Shown here: in pieces, positions 4,088-63,783 of the stretch
How positions within the stretch are numbered: position 1 is the first letter of the stretch
Layout: every line of letters begins with the position of its first letter
Source: Rickettsiales bacterium
GTDB lineage: Bacteria > Pseudomonadota > Alphaproteobacteria > Rs-D84
Length of the DNA: 64,000 bases
Assembly (NCBI GenBank): GCA_031283185.1
Contig: JAITCH010000010.1
Coordinates: forward strand, 63,237-127,236
Reading direction: 5' to 3'
Notes under the pieces: generated by a model
The model's database searches: none
The model's input: the letters and a program-made list of their open reading frames with translations, nothing else
Told to the model about the DNA's origin: nothing
Made by a program: the position numbers and the translations under genes

Positions 4088-4231
4088 TTGCGGCCTCTTT
4101 TCCTACACAATACAACCATAATTTAATTGTGTCAATAAATAAAATTCCTCAGCCTGGCATAGGTAAAAAATCCCATAGGATTTTCGTCAAAAATATGATA
4201 CAATGCTCGGTCAAATAAATAGGAATTACAA

Positions 4232-4444: not shown

Positions 4445-4456
4445 AGGAGAAAACTG

Positions 4457-4671
4457 ATGGCATTATTTGAGTTAAATGGATTTCTTGTCCATAATGATGA
4501 TTTTGGACAGATAAATGTAATAAGAAAACTGGATGAACAGGAAAAAGAGTGGCTCGGTGGGCTTTGTCCCCCCCCCCATTCGCTAGTGCAGCGGCGAGAT
4601 TAAATACAGAATTCCTGTTATATTTGCGGAATAGGGCGAATATAGATAGTCGGCAAAGGGCTGTGGCATAA
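4457..4671 (+). pseudogene. tandem paralog of 4232..4444, interrupted or phase-shifted at a poly-C(10) tract (present frame stops at 4603)
   Basis: An AAGGAGA RBS sits 7 nt upstream. The N-terminus MALFELNGFLVHNDDFGQINVIRKLDEQEKEWLGGLCPPP parallels copy 1. After the C10 tract (4568-4577), the +1 frame encodes ...NTEFLLYLRNRANIDSRQRAVA, homologous to the copy-1 C-terminus ...NFLRKTIADASRQRAVA. Confidence 0.6.
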
Positions 4672-5122: not shown

Positions 5123-5249
5123 CTCCTCCATTGGAGGAGTCCCCCACGAAGTGGGGGGAGGTGGTTTAGCCACATTAAGGTAAGTAGTGCGGGGATATTT
5201 GGTTAAACCACCCCGCGCCTACGGCGCACCCCTCCACCGGAGGGGAATT
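5123..5249. repeat. composite structured repeat copy A: hairpin, hairpin, inverted-repeat core GGTGGTTTAGCCAC...GTGGTTAAACCACC, hairpin, hairpin
   Basis: CTCCTCCATTGGAGGAG, TCCCCCACGAAGTGGGGGGA, the core, CGCGCCTACGGCGCA and CCCCTCCACCGGAGGGG. The architecture is the same as the copy at 35317-35454. Confidence 0.8.
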
Positions 5250-24294: not shown

Positions 24295-24493
24295 CAGAAT
24301 AGCAAATAAATAATAAACCTCAAAAAACATTAACGAGGTCGCGTTTGCGAGGATAGAACGCCCAATATCAAGGAAAGCCGGGGGCGAAGTTGGCGTCTGC
24401 CAATGAGTGTGCCCCCGGTTTCCGCAGATAGTGGGTGTTATAGACCGCAAACGAAAAACCGAGGTTGTGTTTTTTAGCAAAAAGGAGCAAAAA

Positions 24494-26389
24494 ATGGCAA
24501 AAGTATTGGGTATTGATTTGGGAACGACCAATTCCTGTGTCGCATTTATGGATGGCGCAGAACCGAAAATTATAGAAAATTCCGAAGGCCAGCGGACGAC
24601 CCCGTCCATTGTCGCCTTTGCCGCCGACAGCGAAGAACAATTTGTCGGCATCACGGCAAAAAACCAAGCCGTTACAAATCCGGCAAATACGATTTATGAA
24701 ATAAAGCGGCTTATGGGACTTCGCTTTGACGATCCCAGTCTGAAAGATTTCGAGAAATTGTCGCCGTTCAAGATCGTCCCGGGCGACAACGGCGATGCTT
24801 GGGTGGAAATAAAGGGCAAAAAATACGCGCCTTCGCAAATATCCGCAATGATTCTTTCCAAATTGAAAAAGGATGCCGAGGCTTATTTTGGTCAGCCCGT
24901 AACAGAGGCGGTCATAACCGTTCCTGCATATTTCAACGATTCGCAACGCCAGGCGACCAAGGATGCCGGACGCATCGCGGGCTTGAATGTTTTGCGTATT
25001 GTGAACGAACCGACGGCGGCCGCGCTTGCGTATGGTTTGGATAAAAAGAAGAACGGCACGATTGCTGTTTATGATCTTGGCGGCGGAACATTTGATATTT
25101 CAATTCTTGAAATTGTTGACGGGGTGTTCGAGGTCAAGGCAACGAACGGCGATACCAAATTGGGCGGCGGCGACTTTGATAAACGCGTTATGGAGTATCT
25201 GTTGGACGAGTTCAAGAAGTCCAGCGGCATAGATTTGCGCGGCGATAAACTTGCCTTGCAACGGCTTAAAGAAGCGGCGGAAAAGGCAAAAATTGAATTG
25301 TCCAGCAAAACCGAAACGGATATTAATTTGCCGTTTATTACGGCGGATGCGTCCGGCCCGAAACACTTTAATATAAAGATGACCCGGGCGAAGTTGGAAT
25401 CTTTGGTGGACGATTTAATTACGCGTTCGGTGGAACCTTGTAAAAAAGCAATGAAGGACGCAGGGCTGAATATGTCCCAAATTTCCGAGGTTATTTTGGT
25501 CGGTGGACAAACCCGTATGCCCAAAGTGCAGCAGGTCGTCAAAGAGTTCTTTGGCAAAGAACCGCACAAGGGCGTGAACCCGGACGAAGTCGTCTGTATG
25601 GGCGCGGCAGTGCAGGGCGGTGTGCTTAAAGGCGATGTTAAAGATGTTCTGCTTTTGGATGTTACCCCGCTGTCGTTGGGTATTGAAACAATGGGCGGCG
25701 TCTTCACGCGCCTTATTGATCGCAACACGACCATACCGACCAAAAAGTCGCAGGTGTTTTCCACGGCCGAAGATAATCAAACGGCCGTTACGATTCGCGT
25801 ATTTCAGGGCGAACGCGAAATGGCGCAGGATAATAAATTGCTTGGGCAGTTTAATTTAGAAGGCATTGCGCCCGCGCCGCGCGGTATGCCACAGATAGAA
25901 GTCTCGTTTGATATTGACGCGAATGGAATCGTTCATGTATCGGCCAAGGATAAAGGCACGGGCAAAGAGCAGATGATTTCCATTAAATCAGACGGCGGCC
26001 TGTCCGAGGCGGACATACAAAAAATGGTAAAGGATGCAGAGGCGAATGCCGAGGCGGACAAACAGAAACGCGCGCTTGCCGATGCGAAAAATAGCGCAGA
26101 GGCGTTGTATCATTCAACCGAGAAAGCACTTAAAGAGCACGGCGATAAAATTGATGCCGATACGAAGAAAGCGATTGATGATGCTATGACCGAATTGAAA
26201 TCCGAAATGGATAAATCGGATGCGACCGCGGACGGGCTGAAAGCCAAGACGGACGCATTGTCGGAACGCGCGATGAAACTGGGCGAGATTATTTATAAGC
26301 AAGCCCAAGCCGAATCGCAGTCTGCCGGGTCTTCGGAACAGAAAAATCCCGATGGCCCCATCGACGCCGACTTTGAAGAAAAGAAATAA
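24494..26389 (+). CDS. dnaK: molecular chaperone DnaK (Hsp70)
   Basis: Starts [14 protein letters not shown] and continues with the remaining Hsp70 signatures. The start is chosen at the Met with an AAAAGGAG RBS. Confidence 0.95.
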
Positions 26390-26450
26390 TCCTTGTCCCC
26401 CTTTGTCGCGCCGTAGCAAAGCGAAGGCGGATAATGGGTGGGTAAAATAA

Positions 26451-26482
26451 GTTATTCCGGGGCTTGACCCCGGAATCTTGTC
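26451..26482. repeat. REP/RPE-like 32-bp palindromic element (GTTATTCCGGGGCTTGACCCCGGAATCTTGTC)
   Basis: One of six copies of the GTCATYCCSGGGCTTGACCCSGGRATCTYG family. Confidence 0.8.
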
Positions 26483-26498
26483 ATAATATAATTCCCAT

Positions 26499-27503
26499 AT
26501 GAAAAAAATAGATCTTGTATATCTTTGGGTAGATGGCAGCGATGCGAAATGGCAGGCGAAAAAAAATGCCGCATTGAAAAAAGCAGGCATTTATAAAAAG
26601 ACTTCTGCGACATCTGCGAATCGTTGGCGCGATAATGACGAGTTGAAGTATTCGTTAAGGTCTGCGGAAAAATTCGCGCCGTGGATAAATCATATATATA
26701 TTGTGACAGACAGGCAGAAACCAAAATGGTTGAAAGAAAGCGCGCGCTTATCAATTATCAATCACGAACAAATTATGGAAAAAAAGTTTTTGCCGAACTT
26801 TAATGCATCAGCCATTGAAATTAATATATATAAAATTCCAGGGCTTTCGGAACACTTTCTTTATGCGAATGATGATATGTTTTTCGGCCGCCCAGTTAAG
26901 CCGGACTTTTTCTTTGATAGACGGGGTAATCCGATAGTGATTATGACAGGACGAAATAATTGGCGTGCTTTTGCGGGACACAAAACGCGGAATCTCTTCA
27001 AAACAATGAAGTGGAATGCCTTACGATTTGTCCAGCGCGTCTTCGGCGAAAAATATAATTTAACATTCAAACACGCGATAGAGCCATATCGCAAATCGTA
27101 TATGCAGGAAATGGCCGACAAATTTTATAAGGACATAATTGTGCCAAGTATGACGCAATTCCGAGACCGGGCGAATGTGCAGAGAGTTGTATTGCCACTT
27201 ATTGACAATGCGATGGGGCGCAATACGATAATGCTTAATTGGCGCGATGGTAAGAATCGGATAATTTATAATGTCCACCGCGAGCATAGGTTCTGGCATT
27301 TCATTCGTTGGATGTTTGCGGCATTGTTCGGATATATAAAGTATGATTGTTATGACAAGCAGTGGCGGATGAACAAAATTATTCAGAAACGCCACCCAGC
27401 ATTATTTGTGATAAACGATACGGCGGAATCTGATGCTGATTTTATCCGCACTGCGAATTTGATGAACGAAATGTTTCCAAAAAAATCCCAATTCGAAAAA
27501 TAA
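26499..27503 (+). CDS. Stealth-family protein (capsule polysaccharide phosphotransferase-like)
   Basis: CR1-like IDLVYLWVDGSD, and a CR2-like LYANDDMFF. Confidence 0.65.
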   Translation: MKKIDLVYLWVDGSDAKWQAKKNAALKKAGIYKKTSATSANRWRDNDELKYSLRSAEKFAPWINHIYIVTDRQKPKWLKESARLSIINHEQIMEKKFLPNFNASAIEINIYKIPGLSEHFLYANDDMFFGRPVKPDFFFDRRGNPIVIMTGRNNWRAFAGHKTRNLFKTMKWNALRFVQRVFGEKYNLTFKHAIEPYRKSYMQEMADKFYKDIIVPSMTQFRDRANVQRVVLPLIDNAMGRNTIMLNWRDGKNRIIYNVHREHRFWHFIRWMFAALFGYIKYDCYDKQWRMNKIIQKRHPALFVINDTAESDADFIRTANLMNEMFPKKSQFEK

Positions 27504-29257: not shown

Positions 29258-29286
29258 TTGCAATCTACATCACCACCCCTTATAAT
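29258..29286 (+). promoter_or_regulatory. consensus-like promoter TTGCAA-N17-TATAAT for tRNA-Ala/tRNA-Cys
   Basis: Hexamers lie 10 nt upstream of the tRNA-Ala 5' end. Confidence 0.6.
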
Positions 29287-29296
29287 CGCAACCTGT

Positions 29297-29372
29297 GGGG
29301 TCGTAGCTCAGTTGGTAGAGCGCTACGTTCGCATCGTAGAGGTCGGGCGTTCGAGTCGCCTCGGCTCCACCA
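29297..29372 (+). tRNA. tRNA-Ala (anticodon CGC), CCA encoded
   Basis: A cloverleaf can be folded by hand, with a G3:U70 identity pair. The anticodon loop is TTCGCAT and the T-loop TTCGAGT. Confidence 0.9.
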
Positions 29373-29404: not shown

Positions 29405-29478
29405 GGCTCGGTGGCAGAGTGGTTATGCAGAGGACTGCAAATCCTTGTATGCCGGTTCGATTCCGACCCGAGCCTCCA
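29405..29478 (+). tRNA. tRNA-Cys (anticodon GCA), CCA encoded
   Basis: Acceptor stem GGCTCGG/CCGAGCC, anticodon loop CTGCAAA and T-loop TTCGATT. Confidence 0.9.
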
Positions 29479-29599
29479 AATTTCAATATATTATGGCACA
29501 AATCAAGGCCTTACCTGCCGCGCCCGCCTAGGGCGGGGTGGTCGGCAGGCGTATTCGCCCATCCCAAAATAGACAAAATAATAAATTTCACTAAACTAC

Positions 29600-29627
29600 T
29601 TGACAAACGGAGGCAGTGTGCTATATT
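29600..29627 (+). promoter_or_regulatory. promoter TTGACA-N16-TATATT for the sRNA candidate
   Basis: Near-consensus hexamers read from the sequence. Confidence 0.5.
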
Positions 29628-29633
29628 AATGCT

Positions 29634-29834
29634 GTCTGGGGGGAAACTTCCAGCCAGATTCCTTGGGTCACCAGACTCCCTCCTACATTCTCTCTCCTCT
29701 GGCCCCAAGGAACCAAGATTTTGCCGCATTTCATTTACGCGCGGCGCAGAGCTTAAAGCATTCTGTTTCTCCTTTCCTTCCTCCTTCATTTGGAATGCTT
29801 TGGTCCCCCGGATAAAACCGGGGGAAGTTTTTTA
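29634..29834 (+). ncRNA. candidate ~200-nt CU-rich small RNA with its own promoter and intrinsic terminator (CCCCCGG-ATAAAA-CCGGGGG + T6)
   Basis: Delimited by a promoter and a terminator, with no ORF. The pyrimidine-rich tracts CUCCCUCCUAC and CUCCUUUCCUUCCUCCUUC resemble anti-Shine-Dalgarno seed regions. Confidence 0.45.
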
Positions 29835-29837
29835 TCT

Positions 29838-29866
29838 TGCAAACTGATTGTGCTGACATTAATATC
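29838..29866 (+). promoter_or_regulatory. promoter TTGCAA-N17-TAATAT for tRNA-Leu
   Basis: Hexamers lie 14 nt upstream of the tRNA-Leu 5' end. Confidence 0.55.
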
Positions 29867-29880
29867 AATGGGCTTAAATG

Positions 29881-29965
29881 CGGTCGTGGCGAAATTGGTA
29901 GACGCACTACCTTGAGGTGGTAGCGAGTAAAATCATGGGAGTTCAAGTCTCCCCGACCGCACCAA
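29881..29965 (+). tRNA. tRNA-Leu (anticodon GAG), long variable arm, CCA encoded
   Basis: Acceptor stem GCGGTCG/CGACCGC, anticodon loop TTGAGGT and an 85-nt length with an extra arm. Confidence 0.9.
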
Positions 29966-32123: not shown

Positions 32124-32402
32124 CTAATGATGCATCGAATGGCAATTATGACAAACCGATACCAACCAGTCGATGGGTTCTCTGCCGATGTTCCTTGCAT
32201 ATTTTAAGTGATGAACTTGTGTCGCGCGAGCACCACAATATACGCAACGCCAATTATCTCGCTTGAACACCAAATAACGCTTTCGTTGCCAAGCATCTGA
32301 TTTAAGGTAGTCGTTCCGATAATAATCTCTCCGCCATTTCCGCTTCAAATTATTAAAAAACACAAACAAGATTATTAAAACTATTGAAAACAAAATTTGC
32401 AT
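32124..32402 (-). CDS. membrane-anchored HNH endonuclease-like protein (92 aa)
   Basis: An N-terminal TM helix followed by CVYCG...HHL...CHNCH. Confidence 0.65.
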   Translation of the reverse strand: MQILFSIVLIILFVFFNNLKRKWRRDYYRNDYLKSDAWQRKRYLVFKRDNWRCVYCGARATQVHHLKYARNIGREPIDWLVSVCHNCHSMHH

Positions 32403-32403
32403 T

Positions 32404-33243
32404 TTAGTCGTTCCGGTTAAATTTTAAAACAGAATTTTTATTATATGGGCTTGCATATTGCATTGGTTGTGATTTTTCCAAATAGACTATAATTACAAGA
32501 ACCAAATCCATAAACCAACTTATTTCTTCATTGTCAATGTCATGCGAATCAAAGCCCGGGGTCAACATATTAACATGTTTATAACAACAATATTTAGAAT
32601 AATAATTCGAGAAAGATTTTGCAAATTGATTTTCGCCAAGATTTTCCAAATTATCTAATTTCTTTGAGAATGCTCGGACATAACCTTCTGGATCCGGTCG
32701 TTTGTAAGAGTCTCTTAAAAGTTTTATTTTTTCTGCATTAGTTCCGCCGCGAGTGTTTAGTTTTGTGATCGCTTCTTTGTGCATTTCTTCATAAGTTTTA
32801 TGATTTGCTTTATCCAACTTAACTATGCTTGCGCCACTCTGATTGAGAAATTTCAATAAGGATATATGTGATTGTTGAGATGCAAGGTCGTCAAGATTGT
32901 TTTTATCCATATCAAGTATTATAATCATCCGTCCAACAGCGGAACGCGCTACACATTTATTGAAATTAAGAAGTTTAGGTTCTTTATCATTATCTTTTAT
33001 ATAGCTCAATATCGCACAGGTCTCCAACATCTGACCCGCTGTAAGGAATGCATCATAATAACATTTATTTTCTAGTAGAATTCCAAAGGATTTTATTGAA
33101 CTGCAAATGCGTTCATATAAAAGCCATAAAATATAAAGCATTGTGTCTTCGTTATTAAAAGCAGGGCGCGACATAGGGACGAAATCTTTTATGATTTGGA
33201 TTTTGCCCTCAATATTCCAATTATATTTGCGAGAATTCGTCAT
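32404..33243 (-). CDS. hypothetical protein (279 aa), operonic with the HNH gene and the lipoprotein gene
   Basis: A 1-nt gap to the HNH gene, and a 4-nt overlap with the upstream lipoprotein gene. No domain is recognised. Confidence 0.5.
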   Translation of the reverse strand: MTNSRKYNWNIEGKIQIIKDFVPMSRPAFNNEDTMLYILWLLYERICSSIKSFGILLENKCYYDAFLTAGQMLETCAILSYIKDNDKEPKLLNFNKCVARSAVGRMIIILDMDKNNLDDLASQQSHISLLKFLNQSGASIVKLDKANHKTYEEMHKEAITKLNTRGGTNAEKIKLLRDSYKRPDPEGYVRAFSKKLDNLENLGENQFAKSFSNYYSKYCCYKHVNMLTPGFDSHDIDNEEISWFMDLVLVIIVYLEKSQPMQYASPYNKNSVLKFNRND

Positions 33244-33674
33244 TCCATTTCTTTTTGCGGGATATAATAATCCGAAACTTTATAAAAATTATTAAACTTC
33301 TTTTTTTCATTCTCATTTATTAAAAGAATTGTGTAGTATTGGCTATGTTTTGTTATTTCGGTAGGTATATAGACACCATTTGATACATAGCCGCTTTGGG
33401 ATTTGCTTGTGTTGCCATCTTTTGACAACATAGAAAAATATTCATACCCCGTGCCATTAACAAATTTGGCAGTATTTCGCATACAACTATCTTTAACAAA
33501 AGTGTAATTTGCATACCCATTTCCGCCACAGAAAATACTAAATAATTTTCCATCTAGATGTTCGAATCCTGCTCCTAAAATTTCATTGGTTTTAAGTTCC
33601 TCCACATCAAATCCCGCGGTTGGTTGGGCGCAACCAAAACAAATTATAGGTAAAATCAAAGGCAGTTTTTTCAT
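33240..33674 (-). CDS. hypothetical lipoprotein (144 aa)
   Basis: Signal peptide plus lipobox ICFGCAQ. Confidence 0.5.
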   Translation of the reverse strand: MKKLPLILPIICFGCAQPTAGFDVEELKTNEILGAGFEHLDGKLFSIFCGGNGYANYTFVKDSCMRNTAKFVNGTGYEYFSMLSKDGNTSKSQSGYVSNGVYIPTEITKHSQYYTILLINENEKKKFNNFYKVSDYYIPQKEME

Positions 33675-35316: not shown

Positions 35317-35454
35317 GTTCCCCTTCATTGAAGGGGTGTCGCCGCAGGCGACGGGGTAGTTTAGCCACATTTTGGCAAGCAGTGCGGTTATATGTGGTTA
35401 AACCACCCCGGCACTTCGTGCCACCCCTCCAACGGAGGGGAATTTTATTTTTAT
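35317..35454. repeat. composite structured repeat copy B (same architecture as 5123-5249, with compensatory stem changes)
   Basis: CCCCTTCATTGAAGGGG, GTCGCCGCAGGCGAC, the core GGGTAGTTTAGCCAC...GTGGTTAAACCACC, GGCACTTCGTGCC and CCCCTCCAACGGAGGGG. Confidence 0.8.
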
Positions 35455-39572: not shown

Positions 39573-39583
39573 TAAAATAAAAT

Positions 39584-39615
39584 GTCATCCCGGGGCTTGA
39601 CCCCGGGATCTTGCC
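39584..39615. repeat. REP/RPE-like element GTCATCCCGGGGCTTGACCCCGGGATCTTGCC, 12 nt after the stop codon
   Basis: Member of the family described at 26451-26482. Confidence 0.8.
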
Positions 39616-39666
39616 TTTAATAACCTTGACATTTTCCCGTCAGCCCTTTATCATCCCAAGACTTAT

Positions 39667-40519: not shown

Positions 40520-40528
40520 TAAACAAAT

Positions 40529-40560
40529 GTCATCCCGGGGCTTGACCCCGGGATCTTGCC
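40529..40560. repeat. REP/RPE-like element, 10 nt after the rpsD stop
   Basis: Identical to the copy at 39584-39615. Confidence 0.8.
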
Positions 40561-40575
40561 TATAAGAGGTCTCCG

Positions 40576-47490: not shown

Positions 47491-47544
47491 AAATTCTCCT
47501 CCTGTGGAGGAGTCCGGGCGAAGCCCGGGAGGTGGGTCTACCAT
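47491..47544. repeat. 5'-half copy of the composite repeat (subfamily with GGTGGGTCTACC core), directly upstream of the DUF559 gene
   Basis: AAATTCTCCTCCTGTGGAGGAGTCCGGGCGAAGCCCGGGAGGTGGGTCTACCAT, identical over 56 bp to 48002-48057. Confidence 0.8.
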
Positions 47545-48001: not shown

Positions 48002-48128
48002 AAATTCTCCTCCTGTGGAGGAGTCCGGGCGAAGCCCGGGAGGTGGGTCTACCATATCTATGAAACGCAAGCCTAACCCGGAGACCCACCCCGTCCGCTT
48101 CGCGTCCACCCCTCCACCGGAGGGGAAT
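48002..48128. repeat. full composite repeat copy (GGTGGGTCT...AGACCCACC core subfamily), immediately downstream of the DUF559 gene
   Basis: Its 5' half is identical to 47491-47544. The 3' half ends CCCCTCCACCGGAGGGGAATT, as in the other copies. Confidence 0.8.
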
Positions 48129-53856: not shown

Positions 53857-53923
53857 TTTGTCTTTTTTTATGATATAATACCCGTGAGAGAGAAGTAGGA
53901 AACTGCTCATAAAGGAACATATT

Positions 53924-55342
53924 ATGCTTAAATTTGCTAAAATTTTTGGTGCTGTGTGTGGGGTGCTTGTTGTTGCTGGTGGCGCGAATGCTGCTGCGAC
54001 AGAGGCTGATTCTTCGGAACAGGTTATACAGACCACGGGCGGCGCGCAGAATATCGTAATTAGGGTCAAGGTTCGTTCAAAGTCGTCAGAATCTGGCACG
54101 GCGACCACTGCGGGCACTGCGGCGGCATCGTCAAAGCCTGTGCGTCGTAAGTTGAAATCTGGACCAGATAAATGGATTTATGAAAAGCCGAAACCGGTAG
54201 AGGTAAAGCAGGATGTGATAATTGACGGCAAGAATTCGGCAAAGAATTATGAATATGATTTAGAGCCGATTGATTGGGAGGATGACGAACAGGAATTGCC
54301 ACCTTCTCCAAAGCCGAGGGCAGTGGGCGAATGGCGGACGATAAGTGTAGATACGAATTTGGCGAATCCGTTTTTCCAACCACAGCAGGGCAGATTTACA
54401 TTTGATATAGATGCGAGACAGACAAATCATTCATTCAAATTCAAGGTTAAGGATGCTTATACGCCTAGTGTAGTGTATCCAGCGGGCGCTTCTAGTGTGA
54501 ATTTGGAAGGTAAAAAGTTTGGTTTTGATAATACTCAATCTCAGTATTTGGGACGAATTACATATGGTATTACAGATGCGTTAGAGATAAATGGAACGGT
54601 CGCTGGTTATGATCAGAGGTTTGTGTATCAAAATCGTTCGTTTGCTCTTGATTCAACCTTGGCGTTGGCAAATCCGCCGCATGATCTTACGAATGCTGGC
54701 AGTGGGTTGGAATCATGGGGGCTTGGTGTTGCGTGGCGCGTATATGATTATAACGAAGTTTTGTTCCAGGTGCGCGGTGAATACAGGCAGTTGCAGTATG
54801 AAAAAGCATCCGAGGTTCATCTTGGTGTGCAGGGCGGTATCGTTAATGGGCGCAGCACATTTTATGGACGATTGGGTCTGTATTTGTGGAATAATGAACT
54901 GGATGGATATGGATATGGGTTTGGATATGGGGCTACGGATTTTCCAGAAAACTTGTGGGAAAAGGTGTTGTTTGAAACTGACAACAAGCATCCGATTTAT
55001 GTGGAGGGGACAGCCGGTATCTTTACTGCGTTGAACGATAGTGTGTCGCTGGATGTCAATACCAGTTTGGCAGATTTAAGTTGGCGTAGTGTTTGGAGCA
55101 TTGGCAGTCAGTTGGCGTTCCAGCCTGTGGATGCATTTATGTTTATGCTATACGGGAGTTATAATCTGTATGATAGTTCCGCTGGTGTCAGCACTTCTCC
55201 CGATGATAATCAGTTAGTGTTATGGTCAAATATGTCTCCGCAGTATGGTTCTGACCGGGTTGGTTTCCGTCCTGTGAGCGGCATCAATGTTTCCGCCCCG
55301 CGCGAATTCACCTTCGGAGCCGGAATAAAGGTCTTGTTCTAA
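53924..55342 (+). CDS. hypothetical outer-membrane protein (472 aa, porin-like, C-terminal ...KVLF)
   Basis: Signal peptide and a C-terminal Phe. Confidence 0.5.
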   Translation: MLKFAKIFGAVCGVLVVAGGANAAATEADSSEQVIQTTGGAQNIVIRVKVRSKSSESGTATTAGTAAASSKPVRRKLKSGPDKWIYEKPKPVEVKQDVIIDGKNSAKNYEYDLEPIDWEDDEQELPPSPKPRAVGEWRTISVDTNLANPFFQPQQGRFTFDIDARQTNHSFKFKVKDAYTPSVVYPAGASSVNLEGKKFGFDNTQSQYLGRITYGITDALEINGTVAGYDQRFVYQNRSFALDSTLALANPPHDLTNAGSGLESWGLGVAWRVYDYNEVLFQVRGEYRQLQYEKASEVHLGVQGGIVNGRSTFYGRLGLYLWNNELDGYGYGFGYGATDFPENLWEKVLFETDNKHPIYVEGTAGIFTALNDSVSLDVNTSLADLSWRSVWSIGSQLAFQPVDAFMFMLYGSYNLYDSSAGVSTSPDDNQLVLWSNMSPQYGSDRVGFRPVSGINVSAPREFTFGAGIKVLF

Positions 55343-60101: not shown

Positions 60102-60746
60102 ATGAAGTTCAAGTTATATATTATTATATTATGTGCATTTTTTGCAACTCCAACACTCGGGGCATCAGAACTTTCAGCCTCTCGCCAGGTTGAAATAACC
60201 GCGGCAAATTCGGTGGATGCAAAGAATCGCGCTGTGAATGATGCGCGCCAATCGTTGGTCAAAGAATTACTGCGCCGTAGTTCGTCTTCGGATGCCTCGC
60301 GGACAGAGGCCGCGCTGGAACGCCTGACCGATTCGGAAACTTCGGCACTTGTGCGATCGATGAGCATAGAGAACGAAAAGCGGTCGTCAAAGTCGTATGC
60401 GGCAAAGATAACGATAAATTTGGATGCCGAGGCGATGGCAGATTGGTTCGAGAATAGGAACTTGTCGTTTGCGCCGATTTTAGACGCGCAGGTTGGCTGG
60501 ATGCCGGTTTATGTAAATGTGCCTAATGGGCTGAACCAGTGGATATGGTTTAATGCCAAGTTAAGGGATGCCAAGGTTCAGAATCGCGGGGGGTTTCAAG
60601 TATTGCAGATTGGCGGCGGTGTTATTTCCGGCCGGATTTCATCTGATAACGCGCATAAGTTTGCAAGTAATGTTCGTTCCATTGGCGCGAATGTTCAGAA
60701 TGGCGGCACCCTTCGCATTTCATTACCACACGAATCAATGCAATAA
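60102..60746 (+). CDS. hypothetical secreted protein (214 aa)
   Basis: Signal peptide MKFKLYIIILCAFFATPTLGA. Confidence 0.45.
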   Translation: MKFKLYIIILCAFFATPTLGASELSASRQVEITAANSVDAKNRAVNDARQSLVKELLRRSSSSDASRTEAALERLTDSETSALVRSMSIENEKRSSKSYAAKITINLDAEAMADWFENRNLSFAPILDAQVGWMPVYVNVPNGLNQWIWFNAKLRDAKVQNRGGFQVLQIGGGVISGRISSDNAHKFASNVRSIGANVQNGGTLRISLPHESMQ

Positions 60747-60747
60747 T

Positions 60748-60779
60748 GTCATTCCGGGGCTTGACCCCGGAATCTTGCC
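60748..60779. repeat. REP/RPE-like element, 2 nt after the stop codon
   Basis: GTCATTCCGGGGCTTGACCCCGGAATCTTGCC. Confidence 0.8.
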
Positions 60780-60941
60780 TTTTTCACTTGCATTTTGCTT
60801 AAAATATCTATAAAATACTCCAACATTCTTCGGAATGAAATAAACAGGCTAGGTTTTAGGTAGTCTTCACGATTGCCTTCCAGTGCCCCGATGGGGTTCC
60901 CGACCAGCCGAAGTCCAACTGGTAAAACAAAAGGAAAAAAG

Positions 60942-61805: not shown

Positions 61806-61812
61806 TTAATAA

Positions 61813-61844
61813 GTCATCCCCCGGCTTGACCGGGGGATCTCGGC
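61813..61844. repeat. REP/RPE-like element (GTCATCCCCCGGCTTGACCGGGGGATCTCGGC) between rpsB and tsf
   Basis: A family member with compensatory stem changes. Confidence 0.8.
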
Positions 61845-61863
61845 AAAATTAAAGGAATCTAAA

Positions 61864-63030: not shown

Positions 63031-63783
63031 ATGCTTACCGAAAAAGAACATCGTATAAAGGGCTCTGGCGAGTTAAACGAAATGTTTAACGCGCTAAGCC
63101 GGACTGCGACTGGAATCCAGCGCGACTTTGGCGAAATTGAAAGCCTGCAAAGTTCTATTAAGGGCGCGGCGGATTTCGTGGCCAAGGCGATAGAACGGGT
63201 CGAGGCGATGATATTGTCGGACTTGCAGTTAATTCGTCCGCAGGCTGGTATTACGACCACGAACGAATTCCGCGAAGGCGATGGTGTGGACGAATTTGTG
63301 TTGGGATTTTCCGGCGCGGGAAATTTCGTGCGCGGGAATCCGCATTTTGCGATTTCTTTGGCACTTAAACACGAAGGCGAAACTGCGATTGGCTTGATTT
63401 ATTCGCCGATTGACGACAGATTGTATTTCGCGGAAAAGGGCAATGGCGCATTTATATTCGCTCCGTTTCATAGTCAACGGATGCGCGCTTCAACCCGCAC
63501 CGAACCTACTGACCTTACAATTTATAAGTCATTCCCCGGCTTGACCGGGGAATCTCGGCCGCTAATATCGCAAATCCCAACCTCCAACCTTCGCATTTCC
63601 GGCTGCCCTGCGCTTGACCTGGCATATGTTGCATCGGGCAAGGCGGACATTGCGATTTTGGCGAATGACGGCATTTCCGAAATCTGTGCTGGTCAGTTAT
63701 TGGTCGAAGAGGCGAATGGCTTTGTTGATTTCACCAACGGCGACATCCTTGCGGCATCTCTTTCCATAAAATCCTTTATATAA
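63031..63783 (+). CDS. inositol monophosphatase (SuhB/IMPase)-family protein with a degenerate metal-binding motif and an in-frame REP-like insertion
   Basis: C-terminal ALDLAYVASGKAD and central PHFAISLAL match the IMPase fold. However, the DPIDGT motif is replaced by GFSGAG, and the repeat at 63528-63560 encodes SFPGLTGESRP. Confidence 0.6.
   Translation: MLTEKEHRIKGSGELNEMFNALSRTATGIQRDFGEIESLQSSIKGAADFVAKAIERVEAMILSDLQLIRPQAGITTTNEFREGDGVDEFVLGFSGAGNFVRGNPHFAISLALKHEGETAIGLIYSPIDDRLYFAEKGNGAFIFAPFHSQRMRASTRTEPTDLTIYKSFPGLTGESRPLISQIPTSNLRISGCPALDLAYVASGKADIAILANDGISEICAGQLLVEEANGFVDFTNGDILAASLSIKSFI
63528..63560. repeat. REP/RPE-like element inserted in-frame within the IMPase-family gene
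   Basis: GTCATTCCCCGGCTTGACCGGGGAATCTCGGCC. Confidence 0.8.

Follow-up and report, generated by a model that had tools for sequence, protein, structure and literature searches.

The region between the genes for tRNA-Cys and tRNA-Leu in a 64,000-nucleotide stretch of DNA from a Rickettsiales bacterium (GenBank assembly GCA_031283185.1, contig JAITCH010000010.1, positions 63,237 to 127,236 of the forward strand; this whole stretch is called the window, and all positions are counted from its first letter) is very probably a real non-coding RNA gene of about 200 nt, of a family that is not in Rfam. The region had been marked as a candidate CU-rich small RNA (sRNA) in an earlier reading made from the letters alone (the sequence-only reading). 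With regard to function, an about even chance is given to the reading that positions 29634-29833 of the plus strand specify an independently transcribed, ~200-nt CU-loop RNA that displays its loops as seeds for pairing in trans with purine-rich sites on mRNAs. What we infer from the evidence given here is that the RNA is transcribed in vivo, that it acts in trans, and what it targets. The features of the gene are the following:

29600-29627, plus strand: sigma-70 promoter, with TTGACA (29600-29605), a 16-nt spacer, TATATT (29622-29627) and a TGn extended -10 (TG at 29619-29620)
29634-29833, plus strand: predicted transcript of ~200 nt, with the 5' end placed ~7 nt past the -10 and the 3' end in the U-tract
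29634-29659, plus strand: hairpin H1, a 5' stem-loop with a G-rich 5' arm (-11.4 kcal/mol)
29660-29711, plus strand: hairpin H2 (module 1), with a stem of 5 + 8 bp closing the 22-nt loop 1
29718-29750, plus strand: hairpin H3, with a 6-bp GC stem (-8.8 kcal/mol, z = -0.85, not significant)
29753-29802, plus strand: hairpin H4 (module 2), with a 12-bp stem closing the 25-nt loop 2
29804-29833, plus strand: intrinsic terminator, UCCCCCGG-AUAAAA-CCGGGGGA followed by U6

The near-consensus promoter described in the sequence-only reading, TTGACA-N16-TATATT, scores 11 out of 12, is the top site within the 2.3 kb scanned and is preceded by an A/T-rich tract (29566-29599). Promoter-like sites that score at least 11/12 are found 17 times in the window, compared with 1.15 times in mononucleotide shuffles, and most of the 17 lie directly 5' of genes or tRNAs. 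This enrichment indicates that the organism uses sigma-70 consensus promoters and, therefore, that such a site is meaningful here. The terminator was also correctly recognized: its 8-bp stem (29804-29825) holds seven GC pairs, is followed by T6 at 29828-33 and, when folded alone, has an energy of -17.3 kcal/mol (z = -3.2). The whole predicted RNA folds into five hairpins with a minimum free energy of -67.4 kcal/mol (z = -2.93). The pyrimidine-rich transcript body that had been noted resolves into the G-free loops of two stable hairpins, H2 (z = -3.0; two additional outer pairs form in a wider fold) and H4 (z = -3.9), neither of which was folded as well by any of 200 shuffles. Loop 1 (CUCCCUCCUACAUUCUCUCUCC, 29676-29697) is 22 nt long, and loop 2 (UUUCUCCUUUCCUUCCUCCUUCAUU, 29766-29790), of 25 nt, consists of UUUCUCCUUUCCUUCCU and then a variable tail. 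Both are the apical loops of their hairpins with an unpaired probability above 0.9 each, and they are two of only 10 tracts with at least 20 pyrimidines in 22 nt on both strands of the window.

No open reading frame (ORF) with a start codon and a Shine-Dalgarno (SD) sequence was found inside the predicted transcript, and a concatenate of its six reading frames matched no protein at E <= 10 among 5.8 billion sequences, in agreement with the earlier statement that this ~200-nt region has no plausible ORF. The region therefore shows the features by which a stand-alone sRNA gene is generically recognized, namely its own promoter, an intrinsic terminator and the lack of coding potential. The Rfam scan that had been proposed as a check matched no known family or leader: the candidate region has no match in Rfam 15 at gathering score, and nothing credible was obtained for 29470-29890 at E <= 10 with permissive filters. 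In the window, only five tRNAs reach threshold with ARAGORN and Rfam. The earlier failure to identify the RNA by eye with 6S, SRP RNA, tmRNA or RNase P RNA is upheld, given that none of these four gave an Rfam match and ARAGORN called no tmRNA. The homologues described below match no Rfam family either, and the core sequence of loop 1, UCCUACAUUCUCUCUC, was not found in the literature searched.

The evidence from homologues comes entirely from a collection of viral contigs. A scan of this collection with a 21-mer of loop 1 gave four matches, where ~0.05 were expected, and further scans with sub-patterns of loop 1 added more members. After inspection, 11 hairpins that carry the conserved sequence in the loop were retained, the window copy included, while the scan matches without a hairpin were coding or low-complexity sequence. 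The loop-1 hairpins are located as follows:

Window, 29660-29711, plus strand
Contig L194, 88-138, minus strand
Contig L195, 7895-7940
Contig L196, 10112-10163
Contig L197, 5669-5719
Contig L199, two copies, 4101-4151 and 4449-4497, minus strand
Contig L200, 11633-11680, minus strand
Contig L206, 7790-7841
Contig L211, 2670-2722, minus strand
Contig L221, 10737-10788, minus strand

In the fold of each member, a stem of 11-21 bp closes the loop that carries the conserved sequence. A covariance model of the hairpin, R1, scores the homologues at 31-65 bits and H2 of the window at 62.9 bits (E = 7e-19). Full-length homologues are found in L194, L196 and L197, with which the window RNA aligns end to end (L196:10066-10258, L197:5638-5811 and L194:1-185 on the minus strand). 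In these three contigs the elements follow the same order as in the window, with TTGACA-N17-TATATT, a 5' hairpin equivalent to H1 (GUCxx...GGG...CCC...xGAC), module 1, module 2, and a GC terminator with a U-run. All three keep TTGACAAA as well as TATATT, a -10 that departs from the consensus, and have spacers of 17 nt. The loop of their module 2 is AUUUCUUUUUCUCCUUUCCUUCCUUUCA; the loop-2 core UUUCUCCUUUCCUUCCU is common to the window, L196 and L197 and present as a variant in L194, on stems that are entirely different. The window copy differs from the full-length homologues by the extra hairpin H3, an insertion specific to it that falls in a gap in all three, and by its terminator, which in the homologues is a different GC hairpin (ACCGCCGGCAACGGCGG) with a U-run. 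The family was delimited as hairpins of at least 11 bp with a variable stem and a G-poor loop of 16-28 nt holding UCCUACAUUCUCUCUC, which is what the window has at 29660-29711; it also has, in the order seen in L194, L196 and L197, the downstream UUUCUCCUUUCCUUCCU hairpin within a frame of TTGACA/TATATT promoter and terminator.

The remaining six contigs (L195, L199, L200, L206, L211 and L221) have no flanking homology in common. The exact loop-2 motif accompanies the loop-1 hairpin in the unrelated L199, and a more diverged CU-rich loop does so in L200. In the window, L194, L196, L197, L200, L211 and L221, it is the CU strand that bears the promoters and U-tracts, indicating that this strand is the RNA. 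Taken together, the promoter, the hairpin order and the CU loops kept by the homologues, on stems that covary, support the earlier proposal of an independent non-coding sRNA of which the CU stretches are the functional part.

The two pyrimidine-rich loops of this RNA hardly vary among the homologues, whereas the stems that carry them change freely. In the model-based alignment all 11 modelled stem pairs have changed on both sides (29 cells), and the covariation score of 0.628 compares with 0.235 for shuffled alignments, none of which reached it in 500 trials, and with 0.06-0.29 when the pairing partners are slid. An alignment fitted to the model favours structure; however, independent folds of each sequence agree with it, with four or more types of base pair at every one of 10 stacked positions in the stem. 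The stems include U-G and G-U pairs, which indicates that the structure was selected in RNA. Loop 1, by contrast, is identical in six other instances, with the 16-nt core UCCUACAUUCUCUCUC lying within 22 invariant nt, on stems that differ in every unrelated context. L194, L196 and L197 are mutually 68-71% identical over ~5.7 kb, while the 31 nt around loop 1 are 100% identical in these three contigs and the window; every other pair of loci has only the module in common. When the central five nucleotides were left free in the scan, all six hairpin-type matches kept ACAUU. One scan required the 16-nt core, and the invariance in L206, L211 and L221 is therefore partly by construction, but the halves that scans A and B did not require are still conserved, which is not by construction. 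The covariation, together with 31 identical nucleotides amid contigs that are ~70% identical, argues for a real, structured and selected RNA.

Two further observations concern the sequences around loop 1. The motif (A/G)CCAAG(A/U)U stands directly 3' of hairpin 1 in four otherwise unrelated members (window 29712-29722; L195 7941-7950; L206 7842-7850; L211 2660-2669, minus strand) and could be a processing or binding site. In a single phage lineage (L209 783-830, minus strand; L212 4584-4631; L216 5053-5100, minus strand), the 5' half of CCCCCUCCUACAUUCUCUCUCUUCUC is base-paired with a GUAGGAGGGGGG that lies upstream of it, and the sequence is either a cis-masked variant of the motif or a look-alike.

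Other searches did not enlarge the family. A 21-mer of loop 2 gave only low-complexity matches in the viral contigs, and BLAST against GenBank phages and plasmids returned nothing useful, although the low-complexity filter may mask the loops. A metagenome scan with the pattern CTCCCTCCTA-N(77-107)-TTCCTCCTTC, the second seed of which is not conserved, gave 104 low-complexity chance matches and no homologue. Neither BLAST nor model R1 found a paralogue in the window. The loci around five homologues of the PAP2 gene in the neighbourhood were not syntenic, the 173-aa protein next to the sRNA is an orphan, and a six-frame translation probe for miscalled ORFs in relatives found nothing.

The contexts in which the module occurs point to phages. 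L194, L196 and L197 carry genes for a scaffold protein, a major head protein, tail-tube proteins, a terminase fragment and a LipB-family protein, and the head protein of L196 is closest to that of a human-faecal phage (63.5%) and to HTVC010P-type Pelagibacter podophages. The LipB/LplA-family lipoate-ligase gene adjoins the sRNA in the podovirus-like contigs L196 (8458-9123, minus strand) and L197 (4025-4717, minus strand); provided that these contigs are indeed viral, it is an auxiliary gene that one would not usually expect in a phage. L195, L206, L211 and L221 carry phage recombination or replication genes, the module lying beside a Rad52-like gene in L195, a RecE-like exonuclease gene in L211 and near a replication initiator in L221, where the hairpin is placed 3' of a consensus promoter and 5' of an SD and ATG. 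L199 (4040-4640, minus strand) and L200 (11610-11860, minus strand) have two tandem sRNA-like units each, with their own promoter or terminator, in which loop-2-type and loop-1-type hairpins are ordered differently from the window. In L206 (7790-7936) 9 nt separate the end of the hairpin from a phage tRNA-Tyr gene, beyond which lies a tRNA-Asn, a linkage that echoes the tRNA-flanked position of the sRNA in the window. Across these phage or phage-like contigs the loop hairpins occur as stand-alone sRNA genes, at gene 3' ends and once as a 5' leader. Given that they are found in unrelated phage contexts, the sRNA gene is probably of phage origin or exchanged with phages. A prophage or att site at the window locus itself was considered and rejected, since no phage proteins lie nearby and no att-like repeat of tRNA 3' ends was found in the window.

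In the favoured reading, the RNA is a row of hairpins in which two present long, G-free, pyrimidine-rich apical loops; the loops would be the selected, working parts, and the stems would serve only for their display. Exposed in this way, they would base-pair in trans with purine-rich mRNA sites of the GGAG or GAGAGA type, at or near ribosome-binding sites or mRNA 5' ends, and the pairing would block translation or alter mRNA stability, as in other sRNAs with C/U-rich loops. One site in the window is a tentative target, predicted from sequence:

53886-53900, plus strand: candidate target GAGAGAGAAGUAGGA, the complement of the loop-1 core minus one base

The predicted energy of its duplex with the loop is -23.7 kcal/mol, and it is the only trans match within two edits of the core complement among the family-bearing loci examined. 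It lies directly after a TGnTATAAT -10, at the predicted mRNA 5' end of the gene for a 472-aa signal-peptide protein (53924-55342) that has no Pfam or PHROG match. In L194, L196 and L197, a small gene lies between those for the scaffold and the capsid, and the 3' half of loop 1 is predicted to pair with its ribosome-binding site and AUG.

Several observations weigh against this reading. Both candidate targets are single observations, with a rough chance probability of ~0.003 for the one in the window and ~0.05 for the one in the phages. Target prediction with the CU stretches, proposed earlier as a check, did not turn out in favour: across ~60 translation-initiation regions of the window, the loops are predicted to pair no more strongly than they do with gene interiors, or than shuffled loops do. 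A general anti-SD role therefore lacks statistical support and, on these duplex energies, was rejected; the top genome-wide duplex matches are mostly G-rich palindromic repeats. An rRNA target was rejected as well, the best duplexes with E. coli 16S, 23S and 5S rRNA being weaker than those of shuffled loops. The invariance of 22 nt is more than a typical seed needs, and a single long duplex or a protein site fits it at least as well. From the earlier suggestion of anti-SD seed motifs, the importance of the CU stretches stands, as the loops are conserved, but not the anti-SD function, as loop 1 is far longer than an anti-SD motif and initiation-region pairing is not enriched. Conservation between tRNA genes in relatives, also proposed earlier as a check, was not seen. 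Among loci from 80 genomes anchored on methionyl-tRNA synthetase, the two closest belong to metagenome-assembled genomes of Rickettsiales bacteria (L003 and L004, 72-74% identity; the others are below 40%), and their 13-kb loci contain no homologue of the sRNA, no tRNA-Cys/sRNA/tRNA-Leu arrangement and a gene order that is not kept. Finally, all known homologues are from the viral collection, and the phage bias is partly one of ascertainment because this was the sole collection scanned repeatedly.

A wider reading, which we regard as possible but doubtful, is that the CU-loop hairpin is a mobile RNA module shared by unrelated phages and at least one bacterial chromosome, the invariant 22-nt loop of which would recognise one conserved host component, either one particular mRNA 5' end, such as that of a protein that is secreted or exposed at the surface, or a host protein that binds pyrimidines. 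On this view, the module would help phages to reprogramme the host, be it through the loss of a receptor or surface protein or through disturbed termination or translation. The chromosomal copy, in its tRNA cluster, would have been captured from a phage and would now act as a regulator for the cell itself, with superinfection control as one possible task.

The loops may instead act as a decoy or platform for a protein such as Rho, S1, or a cold-shock or KH-domain protein, which G-free, YC-rich loops would titrate or recruit. Rho prefers C-rich, G-poor unstructured RNA, and S1 prefers pyrimidine-rich RNA. Loops of 22-28 nt that are G-free and fully unpaired suit such binding, as do a conservation that runs over 22 nt, beyond the usual seed length, the co-occurrence of two different conserved loops in several unrelated contexts and the lack of enrichment in the predicted mRNA pairing. 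Nonetheless, proteins of the Rho and S1 type tolerate wide sequence variation, which would not alone explain an invariance base by base, and no gene for a candidate protein accompanies the module consistently from locus to locus; we consider this explanation rather unlikely.

It is improbable that the module is an element acting at the level of DNA, that is, a recombination, replication or packaging site made of an inverted repeat around a core, with the promoter and terminator being incidental. Its presence in phage replication and recombination regions (L195, L211 and L221) and beside tRNA genes in the window and L206 is what such a site would lead one to expect. However, at least six loci have a sigma-70 promoter upstream and a U-tract downstream on the CU strand, the U-G and G-U pairs of the stems are tolerated only in RNA, and the window has no att-like repeat of tRNA 3' ends. 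In addition, known recombinase sites conserve the arms and not the loop.

The proximity of the terminator to tRNA-Leu, only 46 nt away, raises the question of whether the RNA is a 5' leader or attenuator of tRNA-Leu(GAG), in which the strong promoter would drive the tRNA by conditional read-through of the terminator, in one version with the many CUC/CUU triplets being sensed by a stalled ribosome or by the tRNA. The tRNA genes around the sRNA, each identified by both ARAGORN and Rfam, are placed as follows:

29297-29372: tRNA-Ala(CGC)
29405-29478: tRNA-Cys(GCA)
29880-29964: tRNA-Leu(GAG)

These calls confirm the position between tRNA-Cys and tRNA-Leu given in the sequence-only reading. The promoter that it had assigned to tRNA-Leu itself, TTGCAA-N17-TAATAT, is indeed present at 29838-29866, although it scores only 8/12. 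This low score and the richness of the loops in CUC and CUU, codons that are read by tRNA-Leu(GAG), would suit a leader. Nonetheless, the -35 hexamer, the spacer and the distance to the tRNA of this promoter match those of the tRNA-Ala and tRNA-Gln promoters, which indicates that the candidate is a separate unit between two tRNA transcription units. Moreover, the terminator is strong, L194 to L197, L199, L200, L211 and L221 have no tRNA in the examined flanks, and leader-peptide attenuation is rejected because no start codon or SD precedes the runs of Leu codons in any frame. A leader function is accordingly rated as very improbable. With regard to the tRNA promoters of the window (29258-29286; 29838-29866; 44787-44759, minus strand; 39626-39654), those of tRNA-Ala, tRNA-Leu and tRNA-Gln have an unusual -35, TTGCAA, with a 17-nt spacer, and that of tRNA-His has TTGACA; in all four the end of the -10 lies 9-14 nt from the mature tRNA 5' end.

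Hardly any weight is given to the proposal that the opposite, purine-rich strand is the functional transcript, with GGA-rich loops as in a CsrA-type sponge. The same hairpin loops do hold many GGA motifs on that strand, which also bears a weak resemblance to the ylbH leader (21.6 bits, with a gathering score of 50; E = 0.017). However, no promoter or terminator frames the region on the minus strand, where the A/T run lies 5' and not 3' of the GC hairpin, and the promoters and U-tracts of the homologues are also on the CU strand. A small protein, or a chance arrangement without function, can practically be dismissed: mechanical ORFs of 46-150 aa do overlap the region, one of them called by the gene caller on a Logan contig, but the six frames have no homologue at E <= 10, the indels and stem-swapping substitutions of the homologues destroy the reading frames and keep the base pairs, and conservation across unrelated genomes rules out chance.

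Other features of the window are given for completeness. Families of short, GC-rich palindromic repeats that resemble repetitive extragenic palindromic (REP) elements are dense (26447-26487, 39580-39620, 40525-40565, 60744-60784, 61809-61849 and 63524-63564, with further ones at 2936/29151/55409 and 3378/29117/55348). Several palindromes lie directly 5' of the tRNA-Ala promoter, and the stem of the sRNA terminator (CCCCCGG/CCGGGGG) is similar to the core of the largest REP-like family. An exact 54-nt duplicate is found 511 nt apart (47491-47544 and 48002-48055) and a 90-nt composite palindromic repeat, with 82% identity, 30 kb apart (5160-5249 and 35355-35444); either could be another non-coding element. 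A low-GC island at 32124-33674 (0.35 versus ~0.46) encodes an HNH-endonuclease-like 92-aa ORF, a DUF5677 protein and a 144-aa orphan, and may be a mobile or defence islet. At 24407-27503, dnaK is followed by the gene for a Stealth CR1/CR2-family protein, and not by dnaJ, and next by a gene for a small beta-barrel protein that resembles outer-membrane proteins.

With the present analysis, an uncultured alphaproteobacterial lineage and several phage groups without known regulatory RNAs gain a structured RNA family that is well supported. The contrast between a conserved loop and a free stem is unusually clean here and points to the nucleotides to be mutated. One and the same module is carried by phage backbones that are unrelated and by a tRNA cluster of a bacterium, which makes it a tractable example of small-RNA exchange between phage and host, and covariance model R1, together with a concrete candidate target, makes the hypothesis readily testable.

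Among known systems, the cuckoo RNAs (CcsR/RSs0680, SmelA075/SmelA099 and NfeR1-type; Rfam RF02344) are alphaproteobacterial sRNAs built as rows of hairpins (PMC4615179; NfeR1, PMC10746234), with variable stems, loops that carry a conserved pyrimidine-rich, anti-SD-like motif and a variable number of hairpins (PMC4615179). The CU-loop RNA is likewise a modular row of hairpins with variable stems and conserved pyrimidine-rich loops in an alphaproteobacterium. Nonetheless, the defining cuckoo loop motif, CCUCCUCCC, is nowhere in 29634-29833 (the published IUPAC variants were not compared), and the loops here, of 22-28 nt, hold the core UCCUACAUUCUCUCUC and a second, different motif. Cuckoo RNAs are defined by two to four adjacent hairpins of 24-50 nt, with loops of 9-27 nt, helices of at least 6 bp and linkers of at most 10 nt (PMC4615179). 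The loop sizes (22 and 25 nt) and the helices of the window fit this definition, but H2, with 52 nt, is too long, and the two CU hairpins are separated by an interval of 41 nt that holds H3, where at most 10 nt are allowed. Furthermore, no match to RF02344 was obtained at gathering score or at E <= 10, and the homologues lie in phage contigs and not in the conserved cuckoo neighbourhoods.

The sRNA sX13 of Xanthomonas pairs through C-rich apical loops with G-rich motifs near translation starts, independently of Hfq (PMC3771888). Both are highly structured sRNAs with their own promoter and terminator, but sX13 has 115 nt and three loops with CCCC or CCCCC, whereas C runs do not exceed CCC in the loops of the CU-loop RNA, which have three to four times the length of those of sX13; there is no sequence or covariance-model similarity. 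The 6C RNA of Actinobacteria has conserved C-rich loops on variable stems and binds several mRNAs without a chaperone (PMC6486639). Conserved loops on variable stems are also found here; however, 6C belongs to another phylum, is shorter, has C-run loops and has no Rfam match in this RNA. The CU-loop RNA fails the cuckoo motif, spacing and covariance model and the defining features of sX13 and 6C. Nevertheless, the displayed, invariant, G-free loop resembles those of C/U-rich-loop sRNAs (cuckoo/CcsR, sX13 and 6C), and for this reason pairing in trans is favoured.

Trans-acting sRNAs are also encoded by phages and prophages, for example DicF of the Qin prophage (review, PMC12197685; dicBF, PMC10448788). 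The likeness lies in sRNA genes that are carried by phages or prophages and retained in chromosomes, and in a conserved single-stranded segment that targets host mRNAs. DicF-type RNAs are linear-seed, Hfq-dependent sRNAs of enterobacteria. The CU-loop RNA has no sequence relationship with them, and what is conserved in it is a hairpin loop, which recurs on phage backbones that are not related to one another. What sets this RNA apart is its sharing between phages and a bacterium and the invariant loop of 22 nt.

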